Shown: positions 10,007 through 19,728 of the stretch, in pieces | How positions within the stretch are numbered: the stretch's first letter is position 1 | Layout of the letters: each line of letters begins with the position of its first letter | IMG/VR virus record: IMGVR_UViG_3300028610_001217 | Direction: 5' to 3' (one strand) | DNA from: a virus | Taxonomy: Duplodnaviria > Heunggongvirae > Uroviricota > Caudoviricetes | Length of the DNA stretch: 37,301 bases | Notes under the pieces: model-generated | Seen by the model: only the letters and a program-made list of their open reading frames with translations | Databases searched by the model: none | Told to the model about the DNA's origin: nothing | Made by a program: the position numbers and the translations under genes

Positions 10007-10019
10007 CCTAATAAAATGA

Positions 10020-10140
10020 CAAGCCCTAAGGGTGAACCCCAGTAAGTCCGAAAGGAGGAGATTGTTTGAACAGTAACAATCTCAAAAAAGGAGAGCCCGG
10101 TCACAGGCAGAAACTTACTGAGGTTCACTCTTGGGGCTTG
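10020..10140 (+). ncRNA. putative structured RNA: 28-bp closing helix capped by a multibranch junction
   Basis: 10020-10047 pairs with 10113-10140 (25 Watson-Crick, 2 G.U, 1 mismatch on +); inner 9-bp hairpin 10058-10083. Strand inferred from G.U versus A.C asymmetry. Confidence 0.6.
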
Positions 10141-10249
10141 AAGGTTTATTGTATACGCTCCTTTCTTTTTCTTTCCGTGACCACCTTACAATAACTATCA
10201 TAATACATAATGTTGTGCCATAACCAACTATTTTCAGAAAGTTTTAAAA

Positions 10250-13157: not shown

Positions 13158-14805
13158 TCACCCTTTCTAAAACCTTCTTGTTGTCAAAAATCGACTTAAA
13201 CAGTTTTGATTTCCCGCTTACAGTTTCCTCAACTATTTCATCCACACTCCCCCTTACCACTATGTCATATATAGTCACATTTTCCTTCTGGCCTATGCGG
13301 TGCAATCTATCTTCTGCTTGCCCATTTTCGCGCGGCGTCCATTCTCTATCCAACCGAATACACCGACTCGCTCGGTATAGGTTGTACCCCTCCGCTTTCT
13401 TAATTGTGCCCAAGAATAACCGTCGCTTACCGGCTTGGAACTCTTCAATCAATTCCGGCTCGCCATCATACAAGGCAATGTCATTAGCCTTCAACACTTT
13501 GGCATCAATCAAATATTGTGCCAGGTAGCGTAGCGGCTTGCGGAACGCACTAAAGACAACCAGGCCATCTTCAGGTGCAGTGCTTTCCAATACATACTTC
13601 ACAAACTCAAACTTGTTGTTTTTCTTTTCAATGATATTCTCGTCAAGAGTCCTAGCTGACACCGTTATCTGCCTGAACCTTAGAAGCTGAGTGAGCACGC
13701 TTGATATATCGATAACTTCATCGTTGGATACCTTGACAAATAGATCCTCAAGAGCTTGCCGGTACATTTCTTTTTGCTGGGTTGTTAGCTCAACATAAAT
13801 CGTTTGGTGAGTCTTATCAGGCAAGTCCTTTAGGACGCCGGTAGAGCCCTTCTTAAGCCTCCTAATGGTCATGTGCCTTAGGTCGTAAGCAAGCTTATCA
13901 CTATGGGTCTTAACAACCTCGAGGCCAAAGCCATTGTGTCTCAGGTCACAATACTTTTCCATGAAGCGCCAATAGCTCCCGTACAAAGTAGGCTCTAATA
14001 TATTGAGCAATGACCAAAAATCCTCAGCCTTGTTCGTTATGGGCGTGCCGGTTAAGAAGAAGGCATAATCGCTTTTCACCTTTTTGACCGCCTTAGTCCT
14101 TTGGGATTTACGGTTGCCTAGATAGTGGGCCTCATCAACTATCAATACGTCAATGTCCTTGCGCTTTTGAAGTTCAGGTAGATCCCGCAAGCCTTCATAA
14201 TTTACGATAATGAAACCGCTCTCGTCAGCGCCAACTTCATCTAGCTGCTTTTGCTTAACCTTAGTTGATCCATCCAATACCCAAACTTTAGCCTTGGGCA
14301 ACCACATAGCTATTTCAGCCACCCAATTAGGCTTCAAATTATTCTTCACGACTGTTAACACCTTGCAGGGATTGCCCACCTCAATAGCAACAGCCTTGGC
14401 AGCCAATAAGGACTGAACCGTTTTCCCGAGGCCCATTTCATCCGCTAACACGCAACGCTTGGCAGTTATTAGGTACTGGATCCCCTGATTTTGATAACTA
14501 TAAAGCCCTTCTCTATATAGAGGGGCATTCTCGTAACCGTTTTTAATTATGCTATCAAGGGTTTCTATCTTATATAGTGCTGTTTGAATGTATCGCTCAA
14601 CTTGAGCTGTTGTGTCAACATTAATGCCTATGTCGTTATAGGCGTTAACAAGAGCTTGATAATTCTCTAAACCTAGCGGTATTTGCCAAAGCTGTTTCGC
14701 CTTAGACCAATTGCTACCCGGTATTTGTTTGGGGATTACCCTGAATTGATACTCCGTTTGGAGCCTGAAACGATTACCGCTAATAGACAGCTTTGCTAAG
14801 GTCAT
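13132..14805 (-). CDS. SNF2/SWI2-family helicase
   Basis: LADEMGLGKT, DEAH, LTGTP, R.HRIGQ motifs. Likely ATG at 14805 (track ORF extends to 14862). Confidence 0.92.
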   Translation of the reverse strand: MTLAKLSISGNRFRLQTEYQFRVIPKQIPGSNWSKAKQLWQIPLGLENYQALVNAYNDIGINVDTTAQVERYIQTALYKIETLDSIIKNGYENAPLYREGLYSYQNQGIQYLITAKRCVLADEMGLGKTVQSLLAAKAVAIEVGNPCKVLTVVKNNLKPNWVAEIAMWLPKAKVWVLDGSTKVKQKQLDEVGADESGFIIVNYEGLRDLPELQKRKDIDVLIVDEAHYLGNRKSQRTKAVKKVKSDYAFFLTGTPITNKAEDFWSLLNILEPTLYGSYWRFMEKYCDLRHNGFGLEVVKTHSDKLAYDLRHMTIRRLKKGSTGVLKDLPDKTHQTIYVELTTQQKEMYRQALEDLFVKVSNDEVIDISSVLTQLLRFRQITVSARTLDENIIEKKNNKFEFVKYVLESTAPEDGLVVFSAFRKPLRYLAQYLIDAKVLKANDIALYDGEPELIEEFQAGKRRLFLGTIKKAEGYNLYRASRCIRLDREWTPRENGQAEDRLHRIGQKENVTIYDIVVRGSVDEIVEETVSGKSKLFKSIFDNKKVLERVIASGKNIV

Positions 14806-14901
14806 ACCTCTATTATCGCCTACAGTGCTGCACCAAAGTACCCTTTTTAGAAGAAAATACAATAAATATTAGAAAAAACCTGAATAAACTTGTAAAAAGT
14901 A

Positions 14902-14930
14902 TTTACTTCCCTTATAAAATACTTTATAAT
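14902..14930 (+). promoter_or_regulatory. strong sigma70-type promoter (early operon)
   Basis: TTTACT-17 nt-TATAAT with an A/T-rich upstream tract; TSS expected near 14937. Confidence 0.85.
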
Positions 14931-14937
14931 AGAGTTT

Positions 14938-15326
14938 GTAAGCGAACCTTGACATAGTGAATCCGCCAGAACCGAGTGGTCAGAGCGGTGAAACAACTAA
15001 ATAAGAGCTCAGCCGAATGAACTCCGAAAACGTAGGGAAAGCCGAAAGGCGCGGAAGTAGGGCATAGGGAGAGCCAAGCAATAACAAGTTGCTAAGAGTA
15101 GCTGATTGAATAAAAATCCTTAGTTTGGTTCTTCAATCAAGCGACACGTTTAACGGCGTACCGTGGCGAGGCATGGCAACCAGCTGCTCCTTGGAACTTG
15201 TTAACAAACCGCTTACTTTGAATTGTCTCGGGAAACTAAAAGATTCCTAATCCCTTCTCACTAGGGGTGCGTAGACAATGGTGCAGTTACTCAGCACAAG
15301 AACCCAGGTGATTCAAAGTAGGCGGA
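14938..15326 (+). ncRNA. large structured non-coding RNA or leader, family not recognised
   Basis: About 400 nt without a coding ORF between promoter and first RBS. Helices: 15083-15104/15181-15202 (21 bp, two bulges), 15209-15224/15310-15325 (16 bp), several inner hairpins, GAAA tetraloop, repeated G.U pairs. Confidence 0.75.
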
Positions 15327-15351
15327 AAGAAGCGACCACAAGGAGGCACTT

Positions 15352-15552
15352 ATGTTGAAAAACGTGCAAATGAAAATCAGGCCGACCGAGGGCAGCCAAA
15401 ACTACACATTGTTCGAAGCCGGTACAAGGATCGAGCTCAGCTACACAAACCCAATCGACGGGAAGACGGCGGAAACACGCTACGTGACACCGGAGCTCAT
15501 CATCCAATTACTTGAGAATGCAGCCATCGACGCTTACACAGCAGAAAGCTAA
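15352..15552 (+). CDS. hypothetical protein, first gene of the early operon
   Basis: AAGGAGG RBS 5 nt before the ATG. Confidence 0.8.
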   Translation: MLKNVQMKIRPTEGSQNYTLFEAGTRIELSYTNPIDGKTAETRYVTPELIIQLLENAAIDAYTAES

Positions 15553-15564
15553 CGGAGGTCTTTC

Positions 15565-15747
15565 ATGAAATGCTCTAAATGCGGTGGTGAATATGAAGTT
15601 CAGCCCGACGGTTCGCTTAAGTGTAAGGATTGCGATAATTGGGTGATAGACTTTAGAACAAGCCACTTAGATACAACTCCGCAGTTACCGTTTGACGAAC
15701 GACGGTGCCGGATTTGCGGGGTGCCGAGGAAACGCTGTTGTTGTTAA
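15565..15747 (+). CDS. small Cys-rich zinc-ribbon protein
   Basis: CSKC, CKDC, CRIC, CCC; CGGAGGT RBS. Confidence 0.75.
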   Translation: MKCSKCGGEYEVQPDGSLKCKDCDNWVIDFRTSHLDTTPQLPFDERRCRICGVPRKRCCC

Positions 15748-15756
15748 GGGGGTATC

Positions 15757-15978
15757 ATGAAAAAATATTTCGTAGTTGAGAGATACAACGGTAAAAGTAT
15801 GCGGATTCCGAAATTCGAAAACGCTGTGAATTTAGCGAGAATTCATGCTGAAGTAATAGCCGAAACTAAAGGCTTGCTGAGCCACGAGTACCACGTGGAT
15901 GTTGTCGATCAAGACGAATCCATAATTGTTAGGATTGATGCCCTGCGTTTAAGGGTATGGAATCAAAGGGAACTGTAG
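15757..15978 (+). CDS. hypothetical protein
   Basis: AGGGGGT RBS; last 10 nt overlap the tRNA 5' end. Confidence 0.7.
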   Translation: MKKYFVVERYNGKSMRIPKFENAVNLARIHAEVIAETKGLLSHEYHVDVVDQDESIIVRIDALRLRVWNQREL

Positions 15979-16043
15979 CTTAAATGGCATAAAGCGCCGG
16001 GCTCATAATCCGCGACTTGGGGGTTCGAATCCCTCCAGTTCCA
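15969..16043 (+). tRNA. tRNA with CAT anticodon (Met or Ile2)
   Basis: GGAACTG/CAGTTCC acceptor stem, GCTT/AAGC D stem, CTCATAA loop, GGGGG-TTCGAAT-CCCTC T arm. CCA not encoded (CTA). Confidence 0.88.
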
Positions 16044-16047
16044 CTAT

Positions 16048-16197
16048 TCGACGAGGTAATCCTGTGGCTGAGATGTGAACTTGGGTAGTCACGGGGGTGG
16101 ACGCTGGATAAGGCATGTCATGGAAGGTCGTGAGTAGCCTAGAAGGTGAAACAGAGAATGGGGGGCGGGTGTCCCAAGCCGATGCTCCGGTAGTCGA
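16048..16197 (+). ncRNA. putative structured RNA between the two tRNAs
   Basis: Nested pairings TCGAC/GTCGA, CTTGGG/CCCAAG, TCACGG/TCGTGA, GAC-GC/GC-GTC; no ORF. Confidence 0.45.
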
Positions 16198-16210
16198 TGA
16201 AGGCGTATCG

Positions 16211-16283
16211 CGTGATGTAGCTCAGCGGGAGAGCGCTTCCTGAGAAAGGGAGAGGACGGGGTGTTCGAATCCCCCCATCACAG
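16211..16283 (+). tRNA. atypical tRNA or tRNA-like element (nominal AGA or shifted GAG anticodon)
   Basis: GTGATG/CATCAC acceptor with C1:A72, GCTC/GAGC D stem, CTTCC-TGAGAAA-GGGAG anticodon arm with G33, TTCGAAT loop with a T.C mismatch in the stem. Confidence 0.7.
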
Positions 16284-16313
16284 CTAAATAGAAACAAAAG
16301 GAGGCACGGTCAC

Positions 16314-16619
16314 ATGCCAGAAAAAACGTGGGAGAAAGAGGAAATTCGCACAATGCTCGAAACACGAGATGTAGCGGTCAGGAAGGGATTGGTTTCGATC
16401 CTCAAATTTCAAACCAGGCAAGAAACTGATACCGAGGAAACTATCGAGGATAACGGTGTCGGGTTTAACGGTGCTGATGCTCCTTTCCTAACGTCACTAG
16501 CCAAACAAGTTGCGGCTGGTCGGCCTTTATCAACTAAACAAATGACATTTGGCCGCAGAAGCATGCTGAAGTATGCAGGGCAACTTGCTCGGATCGCAAA
16601 TGGCAAACAAGCCAGTTGA
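16314..16619 (+). CDS. conserved phage early hypothetical protein
   Basis: AAAGGAGG RBS; QT..E.....T...NGVGFN..DA..L.S.A...LS.KQ...KY..QL pattern seen in phage proteins. Confidence 0.8.
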   Translation: MPEKTWEKEEIRTMLETRDVAVRKGLVSILKFQTRQETDTEETIEDNGVGFNGADAPFLTSLAKQVAAGRPLSTKQMTFGRRSMLKYAGQLARIANGKQAS

Positions 16620-16682
16620 GAAGAATAAAACGGAAGGTCAACAGTTCAAATAGCGCATGAGCGCTAAGAAAGGAGAACGCCT

Positions 16683-17468
16683 ATGTTTTCATATGTTGAA
16701 TTGGAGGATCACCCTACATGCTTTGTTCCTGGGTGTTCAAATCCTCGGAAGTTAGTCAAAGGGGGGAGATATAAAGGAGGCTATGCCCAAACTTGTGAGC
16801 TGTGCGCTGGGGATACCAACTTGCGAACGGCAGCAAGCAGAGCTAGGCGTGAGTGGTTAGAGGATAATGGCCAGCCTTCACCGCCTGAACCTACTAAGTA
16901 CAACAGGGGCAAGATCAGAGTTGAGCAAGCCAGGGAAATCTATAATTCAGCGGAATATTTGCTGAAGAATGGGTTGGGCATCCACGACGATTTGGTTGGT
17001 GAAGCTCACGGTGTTTCGGGAAATACTGTTATGCGGTTGCGGCTCACCCCATCAAGGTGGAAGATCCCGCTACCGCCCCTGAAAGCAGGGAGGGGTAGAC
17101 CTAGGAGGGTGCCTGGTCAAATCGCTAAGGTTAAACAATACCTTCAGGGTCAAGTAAATACTGAACCAACAGCGCCAACAGCGCCAGTTTTGCCGCCAAC
17201 TGAATCAACCAACGGCGAAGACGATATCGACGCCGCGCTGGCAGTTATTGGCCGGGCAATCAGCTCAAGAGATACCCGGATTGAAAGCCTTGAGTTTGAG
17301 AACAACGTACTTCGGCAAGGTCAGACCAAGCAGGTCTACAACCGTATAGCCGAGATGATGCTGAGGAGATTTGGCAATCAGCTACTAGGTAAGGAAGGTG
17401 ACGAGCTTGAGCAAACGCTTGAGCAACTCATGAAACAAACCCCGGCACAAGGTCGGACTAAACAATAG
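16683..17468 (+). CDS. hypothetical, probably DNA-binding (Cys motif, AT-hook-like GRGRPRR, coiled coil)
   Basis: CFVPGC...CELC, GRGRPRR, Pro/Thr linker; AAAGGAG RBS. Confidence 0.7.
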   Translation: MFSYVELEDHPTCFVPGCSNPRKLVKGGRYKGGYAQTCELCAGDTNLRTAASRARREWLEDNGQPSPPEPTKYNRGKIRVEQAREIYNSAEYLLKNGLGIHDDLVGEAHGVSGNTVMRLRLTPSRWKIPLPPLKAGRGRPRRVPGQIAKVKQYLQGQVNTEPTAPTAPVLPPTESTNGEDDIDAALAVIGRAISSRDTRIESLEFENNVLRQGQTKQVYNRIAEMMLRRFGNQLLGKEGDELEQTLEQLMKQTPAQGRTKQ

Positions 17469-17508
17469 AAGCGGTAGAACGCCGCTTCTCACGGAGAAAG
17501 GCAAGTAT

Positions 17509-18501
17509 ATGCACAATTTATTTGGAGAAAGGTTCTTGAGTAAGAGAGTGCCGCCATGGCACCGCCTCGGGCAAATAACCGAGAGCGATATGGGCGCAGC
17601 TGCGGCTTTTGAAAAGGTCGGTTCTTACACGGTGGGCCTCAGGAATTTGAGGCTAACGGACGGAACGGCCATCGACCAAAAGGCCATCGTGCGCGGTAAG
17701 ACCAAAGATGATCCGCACCGCCGAGTCTTCAACGTGGTCAGCAGCAAGTATCACCTGCTCGCCCCGCAAGACTTTTGCGACATCTGGGACAACAAGGTCG
17801 GTCGCCCGGTTGAAACCTTAGGCGTTCTCGGCCAAGGTGAAAACATCTTTATTACTACTAAGATGCCGGGCATGGACATTCACGGGGACGAGATCGAAAA
17901 CTACCTTGTTGCGGTCTCACCCATGAACGGTACTCAATCGGCCAAGGTTATGGTCGCCCCCATCAGGGTTGTATGCCAAAACACCTTGAGTGCAGCTGAA
18001 GGGTCTTGCACCGAGGTCTACCGGATCATCCATGACCGGCACATCAAGGCGAACATTGCCGCCTGGATGACCGACGTTTATGGTCGGTCGGAGCAAAAGC
18101 TTGAAACACTCAAAGAGGCTTTTGATGCCTTGGCCAACTTCAATGTGACCAAGAGGCAGGTTACGCAAGTTCTTCAGGCCTGCTACCCGATGCCGGATGC
18201 ACCGCAGCGCAGCGTTTCTACGGAAATGACGGAGAAGCGGCAAAGGTATCACACCTTCGAAATGGAGCGCGTGAACAAGCGACGTAATGCCGTGCACGAG
18301 CTTCTTGAAGGTGACGGTACTGCCCTTGACAACAAAGCGTGTAAGGGTACTGGCTGGGGCTTGTACAACGGTATTGTCGAAGTTGAAGACTACCGGAACA
18401 GTCGCGGCGAAGATGGTGCCGCCGATCGAAGCGTTCTGTTCGGCACCCGCGCCAAGGTCAAGGCGACCGCTTACAACTCACTGCTTAAGCTGGCCAGTTA
18501 A
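17509..18501 (+). CDS. DUF932/DUF945 family protein (TIGR03299-like)
   Basis: PWHRLG, V..KY...., ET.G.L..G...F, YL......G, PIRVVCQNTL, H, T.WGLYN..VE..D motifs. Confidence 0.9.
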   Translation: MHNLFGERFLSKRVPPWHRLGQITESDMGAAAAFEKVGSYTVGLRNLRLTDGTAIDQKAIVRGKTKDDPHRRVFNVVSSKYHLLAPQDFCDIWDNKVGRPVETLGVLGQGENIFITTKMPGMDIHGDEIENYLVAVSPMNGTQSAKVMVAPIRVVCQNTLSAAEGSCTEVYRIIHDRHIKANIAAWMTDVYGRSEQKLETLKEAFDALANFNVTKRQVTQVLQACYPMPDAPQRSVSTEMTEKRQRYHTFEMERVNKRRNAVHELLEGDGTALDNKACKGTGWGLYNGIVEVEDYRNSRGEDGAADRSVLFGTRAKVKATAYNSLLKLAS

Positions 18502-18516
18502 GCCAAGTTGACCAGG

Positions 18517-18551
18517 AAAGGTGGGTCTCTGTGCTTCAGGGACCTACCCTT
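18517..18551 (+). terminator. terminator-like hairpin after DUF932
   Basis: GGTGGGTCTCT/AGGGACCTACC, 11 bp with two G.U; short T tail. Confidence 0.45.
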
Positions 18552-18597
18552 AATGGCCAAGTTAATTATCTATAAAGGGTGTAAGGGTGTGATAAAA

Positions 18598-18852
18598 ATG
18601 GCGAGAGGAAGACCGATACCGGGACTGGAACAAGCGATTGAAGCATTTCTATATGAGCAACCCGGAACAACAGCAAGAATAATCCATAGAGGCTGCGAAG
18701 GTTCTTTGGGAACCAGGCTGCTACTATCTACCGTTAATTCAGCTTTAAGAAGATTGACAAGAGAAGGAGTTTTAAGGAAGAGGTCGCCAGAAGGCAGGAA
18801 AGTTCCGTTCATATATTTCCCGGAGGAGAAGGAGCAAGAGAATGAAGAGTAA
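18598..18852 (+). CDS. small winged-helix-like DNA-binding protein
   Basis: TARII...LSTVNSALRRLTREGVL.K...GR...FIY pattern; start at MARGRP inferred. Confidence 0.6.
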   Translation: MARGRPIPGLEQAIEAFLYEQPGTTARIIHRGCEGSLGTRLLLSTVNSALRRLTREGVLRKRSPEGRKVPFIYFPEEKEQENEE

Positions 18853-19168
18853 AACATACGTCGGTAAACGATATGAAGAAAGCAATGTTGTCGTGGTTAT
18901 TGCGGAAGGGCAAAGCCCGGTACGCTTAACACACCACGTTCAGCATAGCCTCGACGGATTCAATTGGGGATACGAGGGTAGTGGCCCAGCGGAGTTAGCC
19001 CGGTGTATCCTATGGGATCTTATAGGAGAAGAACCTAAAGATGCCGTATACCAAAGCTTCAAGCGGGAAGTCATTGCCGCGCAAACCAAAGACGCTTTTC
19101 ACCTTACGTCCGAAGATATAGACCATTGGCTCAAAGATTGGATGGAGAGGAGCGCCGAAGATGCCTAG
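18842..19168 (+). CDS. DUF6166-like protein
   Basis: HS.DGFNWGY.GSGPAELA..IL motif. Confidence 0.75.
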   Translation: MKSKTYVGKRYEESNVVVVIAEGQSPVRLTHHVQHSLDGFNWGYEGSGPAELARCILWDLIGEEPKDAVYQSFKREVIAAQTKDAFHLTSEDIDHWLKDWMERSAEDA

Positions 19169-19682
19169 ATGGTATAAGGTAGCGCTTTCTGTATTTGCGG
19201 TTTTCTTTTTTATTGGGATCTACCAAAGCATAAGGGTTGAACCGAAACTAACTAAAAATGAAAAGCAGATCATAAATTGGCTTGATGAAGCAAAGGCCGA
19301 AAGAGACACCGTTAAAGCTTATGGTGTTAAGGTTGAGCAATATGTAAACCTTTCCGATGATGCTTATTTCTCCATTCAAGCTGCAGTTGATGACGGCGAC
19401 GATGCAATTCTAGCCGCCGAAACTTCAGTAGAAACGCACGAAAACTTACTTCAAGCGCTTTACAAACTCGATGCTCCCGAGAGCTTTAATGAATCACGTG
19501 GAGATATATCTACCGGCTTGCGCCTACGGAAAGAAGCTTCCGTTCATTTTGTGAACACTACAACTAAGCCGTCACTAAAGGAACAATCACTACTTACTGA
19601 AAAGTCAGAGCGTGCTATATTGTGGCTTCTTTCCGGGCTAGCCGGAACAAAGGACGAATTGAGAAAGTTTTCTGTTCAATAA
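19161..19682 (+). CDS. N-terminally membrane-anchored helical protein
   Basis: VALSVFAVFFFIGIY TM segment; last gene before the terminator. Confidence 0.7.
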   Translation: MPRWYKVALSVFAVFFFIGIYQSIRVEPKLTKNEKQIINWLDEAKAERDTVKAYGVKVEQYVNLSDDAYFSIQAAVDDGDDAILAAETSVETHENLLQALYKLDAPESFNESRGDISTGLRLRKEASVHFVNTTTKPSLKEQSLLTEKSERAILWLLSGLAGTKDELRKFSVQ

Positions 19683-19684
19683 AA

Positions 19685-19728
19685 AGAAAAGACCCCCACC
19701 CGGTTTCCTCGGGATGGGGGTCTTTTCT
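19685..19728. terminator. bidirectional intrinsic terminator between convergent operons
   Basis: AGAAAAGACCCCCA...TGGGGGTCTTTTCT, 14-bp inverted repeat with A and T tails. Confidence 0.9.

Follow-up and report, generated by a model that had tools for sequence, protein, structure and literature searches.

A conserved structured region as a candidate modular leader RNA of a tRNA-containing operon in a subsurface phage

Locus, promoter and downstream operon

The genome of an uncultured phage recovered from a subsurface metagenome has an RNA candidate in a 546-nt intergenic region beside its replication genes, which raises the question of whether this RNA is a molecule in its own right or the leader of the operon that follows it. 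The whole stretch of DNA analysed (37,301 nt, hereafter the window, to which coordinates refer) corresponds to bases 51149-88449, read on the reverse strand, of an IMG/VR record of 101,279 bp with direct terminal repeats. The intergenic region is flanked by divergent transcription units. To its left, the minus strand encodes an SNF2-family helicase, the 557-aa form of which starts at 14805; genes for a PD-(D/E)XK nuclease and for a helicase of the primase/MCM type come next. To its right lies a plus-strand operon of 4.8 kb with small ORFs at its head (66, 60 and 73 aa), two tRNA genes, and then genes for a 101-aa PHROG-21015 protein, a 261-aa protein, DUF932 and DUF6166 proteins, and others. 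An earlier note on this sequence had described the RNA as a single ornate unit of about 390 nt and as the first transcript from the strongest promoter. The locus lies at 73 kb of the 101-kb genome, in its middle and away from the termini, so that "first transcript" has no positional support. The features on which the following analysis is based are listed below.

14890-14930, plus strand: two overlapping sigma-70-like promoter sites (TTGTAA-17-TATAAA and TTTACT-17-TATAAT), 10/12 match
14963-14988, plus strand: hairpin i (CCGC-CAGA-ACC-GAGU-GGU-CAGA-GCGG), putative accessory module
15005-15076, plus strand: domain ii, purine-rich conserved core, 91% identical to the relative L002
15082-15203, plus strand: domain iii, 22-bp helix capped by three small hairpins, putative accessory module
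15209-15326, plus strand: domain iv, second conserved core, 20+3-bp helix closing a multi-branch interior, 89% identical to L002
15342-15552, plus strand: RBS (AAGGAGG) and first operon ORF (66 aa), cargo that is not conserved in the relatives
15969-16044, plus strand: tRNA-Met, first tRNA of the operon
16211-16284, plus strand: second tRNA, Ser-like, after a 150-nt spacer
19685-19728, plus strand: strongest terminator-like hairpin after the leader on this strand (inverted-repeat and terminator scans)

Among 5.8 billion proteins, the SNF2 helicase had one cluster at 100% and another at 82%, with no further match exceeding 36%. The 82% phage (L002, L004-L007 and L014) was syntenic with the window phage, and the two co-occurred in samples 3300024265 and ERZ27251120. 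L002 was the only relative read as DNA. A third variant, X2, from a different study (2025), was about 95-98% like the window and was known from a list of its differences. The 36% helicase relative had a different synteny and no such leader.

The promoter sites occupy an AT-rich stretch (GC 0.35), and transcription likely starts at about 14925-14938. Both hexamer pairs were kept in L002 (TTGAAA..TATAAA and TTTACT..TATACT), and the leader promoter is plausible and conserved as judged from its sequence. The rank of "strongest promoter" was not borne out, as 26 sites in the genome scored at least 10/12, the site of the leader matching 25 others in this, and two sites reached 11. In the gap between the RNA and the RBS, which lies 16 nt past the last pair of domain iv, the terminator scan found no plus-strand terminator-like site. 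A scan confined to intrinsic terminators predicted none on the plus strand between 15300 and 19500; the only two plus-strand terminator-like sites in the operon (19526-19543 and 19702-19722) were located at its end, and the hairpin at 19685-19728 is probably the end of the operon. Since no terminator or other 3' signal precedes the first ORF, a 5' leader is a simpler description of this RNA than a discrete ncRNA.

The DUF932 (330 aa) and DUF6166 (108 aa) proteins were encoded together with unknowns at 16683-19682. DUF932 is frequent in plasmid leading regions and in phage accessory regions, and the composition of the operon may hint at a role in anti-defence or takeover.

Predicted fold and compensatory changes

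The folding energy of each segment was compared with 200 shuffles and computed for each strand. The whole 403 nt gave z -1.93 on the plus and -0.38 on the minus strand. Domains iii and iv were well separated from their shuffles, none of the 200 folding as well as either of them on the plus strand. In domain iii, the arms 15082-15108 and 15177-15203 form 22 pairs (9+5+8), two of which are G.U, interrupted by two bulges (-42.4 kcal/mol; z -4.05 on plus, -3.44 on minus); the 21-bp helix previously placed at 15083-15104/15181-15202 was therefore confirmed, with one more pair. The closing helix of domain iv, for which 16 bp had been claimed, proved longer: 15209-15228 pairs with 15306-15325 and GGG 15230-32 with CCC 15303-05, enclosing an interior that contains two small hairpins (-40.9 kcal/mol; z -3.75 on plus, -1.46 on minus). 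Among the inverted repeats within 200 nt in the 37-kb window, the arms of domain iii ranked second and 15209-15223/15311-15325 of domain iv ranked eighth. The asymmetry between the strands arises because the G.U pairs of the helices become A.C mismatches on the minus strand, and domain iv is strand-specific because it has four wobble pairs. The frequency of G.U pairs had been pointed out before as expected for RNA, and it favours the plus strand.

The two smaller domains were less stable. In the predicted fold of domain ii, the pair 15005:15075 closes an outer GCUC/GAGC helix, a CGU/GCG helix lies further in, and the apex is a GNRA hairpin, the length of which varies between variants; the stability of the domain was unremarkable (-18.5 kcal/mol; z -0.84 on plus, -0.05 on minus). 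All the sequence strings quoted in the earlier note were present where it had placed them. Its hairpin i does exist, yet it was weak on the plus strand and better on the minus strand (folded as 14960-14992: -8.4 kcal/mol; z -1.33 and -3.60, respectively), and it was absent from L002.

The fold was scored in L002 using the 55 pairs of the minimum free energy (MFE) structure of domains ii and iv, calculated from the window alone. Forty-three pairs were unchanged, and three switched between wobble and Watson-Crick, two of these from U.G to U-A (15224:15310 and 15226:15308). Double compensations were found at 15005:15075 (G-C to A-U) and 15032:15052 (G-C to C-G), and a third, 15253:15266 (C-G to U-A), holds in one of two possible registers. 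Two further MFE pairs fell on alignment gaps. Five pairs were scored as broken, three of which resulted from a hairpin insertion (15042:15049 and 15043:15048) or from CCC/GGGG slippage (15252:15266), leaving two true breaks at 15017:15065 and 15217:15317. When 17 random substitutions were simulated, at least two double compensations occurred in 1.2% of the trials and at least three in 0.05%. The covariation statistics are weak, because one relative was read as DNA and X2 was available only as a difference list; the compensatory pattern supports the RNA fold, from one fully read relative.

The apical hairpin of domain ii gained a pair in L002, where GCC/GGC around GAAA became GGCC/GGCC, and the GCC-GAAA-GGC part of the arm proposed before was thereby supported. 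The same did not apply to the loop-E-like TCCG/CGGA part, since C15052 covaries with G15032, in agreement with the CGU/GCG pairing of the MFE structure. The long-range contacts that had been suggested (TAGTGA/TCACTA and GAGTGG/TTACTC) had no partner in L002, and the loop at 15287-15291 varied at four of its five positions. A contact between domains ii and iv was also considered and rejected, the best duplexes being at non-homologous positions in the two phages.

The rates of change in L002 were alike for paired (14/110) and unpaired (11/80) positions, so the conservation may reflect sequence rather than structure. In domain iv, positions 15218-15252 (35 nt) had no recorded difference across the three variants, and the sequence must therefore be constrained in addition to its pairing. 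Domain ii contained a 22-nt stretch of the same kind. Taken together, the long untranslated stretch very likely folds into a conserved plus-strand RNA.

Fixed and exchangeable domains in the relatives

Domains ii and iv were 89-91% identical between the window and L002, compared with 71-77% for the flanking genes. In 80-nt windows they reached 0.875-0.88, equal to the best coding segments, while another intergenic region reached 0.4-0.65. The remainder of the proposed RNA was not shared: L002 lacked about 38 nt including hairpin i, and it lacked domain iii, which was replaced by a linker of 19-21 nt. The idea of a single ornate unit of about 390 nt was consequently abandoned, given that only domains ii and iv are conserved. 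Right after domain iv, L002 carried an extra domain of 105 nt (L002:3455-3585, minus strand) with an 8+15-bp (23-bp) helix. It had a folding energy of -49.1 kcal/mol (z -5.16), and the first called gene of the relative was preceded by about 160 nt of further untranslated RNA. The architecture of this domain resembles that of domain iii; homology with domain iii was rejected, as the two share only an 8-mer and could not be aligned.

X2 retained hairpin i unchanged as well as the flanks of domain iii, carried 11 inserted nt at the apex of domain ii, where a larger loop replaces the GNRA loop, and diverged completely after 15327. It serves as supporting evidence only, because two of the nine differences in its 3' piece were not localised. 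A 523-nt low-depth contig (X1 record 2; window 14833-15046) from the probable source sample had an L002-like promoter region, followed by 89 unrelated letters in place of 14933-15020 and then by sequence identical to the window; it may be a fourth variant, with the region of domain i swapped at equal length. The indels observed remove or add entire hairpin domains and leave their neighbours intact. From these comparisons, domains i and iii would be dispensable and exchangeable, and domains ii and iv (about 200 nt) would form a fixed core.

The similarity to both L002 and X2 ended at 15326/7, and beyond this boundary the downstream genes differed in the relatives. No similarity was found between window 15341-16018 and L004. 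The tRNA cargo differed as well (Met and Ser-like in the window phage; Lys in the relative), with tRNA genes following within 650-700 nt in both phages. Conservation of the operon genes between the two phages began with the gene for the 101-aa PHROG-21015 protein, and the operon head (window 15352-16300; L004 10900-12800) behaves, in this alignment, as a hypervariable cargo slot. Recombination between the phages is possible because both types share samples; it could inflate the identity and shape the mosaic boundaries at 15326/7.

The region matched none of the known RNA families. In the whole window, cmscan at gathering score returned the two tRNAs only, and between 14700 and 15500 at E <= 10 it gave only chance hits to TtnuCD4 (E 0.72) and Ocean-V (E 9.4). 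No membership of GOLLD or ROOL was therefore detectable, nor was the region recognised as a riboswitch or as RNase P, tmRNA, SRP or 6S RNA; introns and Y-like RNAs also had no Rfam match at or near gathering score, and ARAGORN found no tmRNA. These results agree with the earlier failure to recognise a riboswitch, intron, RNase P, tmRNA or SRP core, and they speak against the suggestion of a divergent GOLLD or ROOL member, as neither model matched at E <= 10.

Further homologues were not found in four public sequence collections. A blastn search against 50,697 phage records returned nothing. A scan of viral contigs anchored on the SNF2 helicase protein, and searches for exact matches to 18- to 25-mers taken from domains ii, iii and iv in viral, metagenome and genome contigs, gave L002-type or chance matches only. 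L012, L013 and L015 were read and turned out to be chance or coding matches. A gapped junction pattern had 22 matches, all of them unrelated, ten being one conserved 98-nt sequence that is coding-like. A search with the helicase N-terminus for the short contig with the possible fourth variant gave nothing. The cultured phages RcZahn and DLP_3 share the 101-aa protein and are not syntenic. A covariance model of domain iv detected no paralogue in the genome or in the loci of the relatives. The family thus consists of three or four environmental variants, and a claim to a "new class" rests on thin comparative evidence.

Several other explanations of the sequence were considered and rejected. ORFs of 35-54 aa overlap the region, and every one of them is broken or deleted by the +2-nt, 133-nt and ~38-nt indels of L002; because these indels break the frames, no conserved peptide is present and the region is non-coding, as had been proposed. 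A CsrA-sponge-like enrichment of GGA was discarded, the GGA count (our own, on the sequence) being about the number expected by chance. Sequestration by CUCCUU in domain iii acting as an anti-SD was discarded because L002 has no domain iii.

Readings of the conserved RNA

We favour, with moderate confidence, a modular cis-acting 5' leader made of a conserved core of about 200 nt and exchangeable long helices of the RNase III-substrate type. This reading is preferred because the RNA is promoter-proximal, lacks a 3' signal of its own and ends shortly before the RBS, and because the cargo varies behind a fixed head and the helix lengths suit RNase III. The predicted helices of domain iii (22 bp), domain iv (20+3 bp) and the extra L002 domain (23 bp) all attain the roughly 20 bp of near-continuous double-stranded RNA that RNase III requires. 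Positions ~14930-15351 would be transcribed rightward as the untranslated 5' leader of the 4.8-kb operon. Its core would be formed by domain ii and by domain iv, in which a helix of about 22 bp closes off a multi-branch structure. Modules would have been inserted around this core: hairpin i and the 22-bp domain iii in the window phage and, in the relative, a different domain of 23 bp that follows domain iv. We infer that such a leader acts in cis on whichever cargo follows it. The two-turn helices, being of a size cut by RNase III, could give rise to defined, hairpin-protected ends, and they might keep 400 nt of untranslated RNA folded and hence shielded from nucleases and Rho, while the core, with its constrained sequence, would serve as the binding site of a host or phage factor.

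The closest known parallels to this leader are the RNase III processing hairpins of phage early transcripts (the T7/T3 R sites and the lambda N-leader site), which are imperfect helices of about two turns in untranslated parts of operon RNAs that the host RNA polymerase makes from sigma-70 promoters, and one of which lies in a long leader before the first gene. The helices described here are likewise of about two turns and situated in predicted untranslated operon RNA. They differ in closing conserved multi-branch interiors and in having no sequence relation to those sites, and in domain iv the strongest constraint falls on the unpaired interior. In Gram-positive phages and genes, 5' mRNA stabilisers include the SP82 polypurine stabiliser, which follows a Bs-RNase III cut, and STAB-SD. 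Domain ii resembles these in its purine-rich, SD-like tract (GGAAG, AGGGC and AGGGAG) near long helices of the RNase III type, but its SD-like complementarity is weak.

The alternative of a structured ncRNA of a new class that stands alone and acts in trans, after its release by cleavage within or beside the long helices, is somewhat unlikely in our estimation. Such an RNA would act on a host or phage factor, as may be imagined by analogy with GOLLD, ROOL and the stable tRNA-adjacent RNAs of T4. It would account for the constraint in excess of pairing in the two difference-free stretches (35 nt at 15218-15252 and 22 nt in domain ii), and for a promoter-plus-RNA module that is kept while its cargo changes, with a boundary at 15326/7 that was sharp in two comparisons. 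The tRNA genes within 650-700 nt in both phages and the lack of a matching Rfam family are also in keeping with it. On the other hand, neither a terminator nor a recognisable processing signal comes after domain iv, half of the RNA as first proposed can be dispensed with, and the lineage is tiny. GOLLD and ROOL are large ornate RNAs that frequently occur near tRNAs in phages or prophages (10.1101/2024.12.08.627333; PMC5737381). The present RNA is similarly phage-borne, structured and non-coding, with tRNA genes close by, but it is smaller, its core having about 200 nt where they have roughly 600-800 nt; it also lacks a 3' end of its own and is represented by only three or four variants.

A related proposal, which we hold to be unlikely, is that domains ii and iv are the core of an undescribed class of phage ncRNA with a tertiary fold or a protein or ribosome partner, around which long-helix modules are swapped and which heads hypervariable, tRNA-containing accessory operons.

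If the core (domains ii and iv) is a functional RNA, it would add a phage-borne structured RNA without Rfam relatives, a fixed "head" before variable accessory genes and tRNAs, and a clear natural case in which whole helical domains come, go and change position about a core that stays constant. In practical terms it would be a candidate portable leader for stabilising or insulating transcripts, the value of which is limited by its very narrow distribution and by a host that is uncultured.

It is quite improbable that the RNA is a processive antitermination element, whether of the HK022 put type (RNA alone) or of the nut/rrn type (factor-dependent). The put RNA of HK022 is made up of two simple stem-loops, about 70 nt in size, which directly follow an early promoter and work in cis on terminators downstream. 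The structured RNA studied here is also placed promoter-proximally, ahead of an operon with untranslated tRNA genes, and it includes a small GNRA-capped hairpin. However, it is several times larger than put and different in architecture, X2 has a larger loop instead of the GNRA loop, and no internal intrinsic terminators are predicted on the plus strand before the operon end (15300-19500). With respect to boxA/boxB signals, the sole boxA-like string, GTTAACAA, matched 5/8 core positions here and 3/8 in L002 (by eye).

A function at the level of DNA, as an origin of replication, a set of operator sites or a hot spot of recombination, is likewise quite improbable. The region adjoins the SNF2 helicase, nuclease and primase-helicase genes, contains inverted repeats and has mosaic junctions at its edges. 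Nevertheless, it has no iterons or direct-repeat arrays, its GC content is 0.44-0.48 across the RNA with AT-rich sequence only in the promoter stretch, the compensatory changes preserve pairing, and the imperfections of the helices are of the G.T type, good only as plus-strand RNA.

Lastly, it is very improbable that the region has no specific function, its helices being remnants of inserted palindromes (MITE-like) and its conservation the product of recent recombination: domains i and iii do behave as insertions or deletions and both phage types occur in the same samples, but the identity is 89-91% and not near 100%, the differences include compensatory pairs, and no second copy of a domain was found in the genome or in the viral, metagenome and genome collections. 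Each domain was single-copy in the 101-kb genome, and a 20-mer of the domain iii arm was absent from the viral and genome contigs searched; mobile palindromes of the MITE or REP type were rejected for domains i and iii, as multiple copies were lacking in the genome and the collections.

A further long helix was observed elsewhere in the window, in the leader upstream of the primase-helicase gene, where a 28-bp hairpin (10010-10150; about 5530-5690 in L004) was the best inverted repeat of the window. It was kept by several compensatory changes in its arms, with CCCTAAGGG/CTCTTGGGG becoming CCGCAAAAG/CTTTTGCGG in the relative, and its apical part differed in length and sequence between the phages. 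Together with the helices of the leader and of the L002 domain after domain iv, it indicates that long helices recur in the untranslated regions of this lineage.
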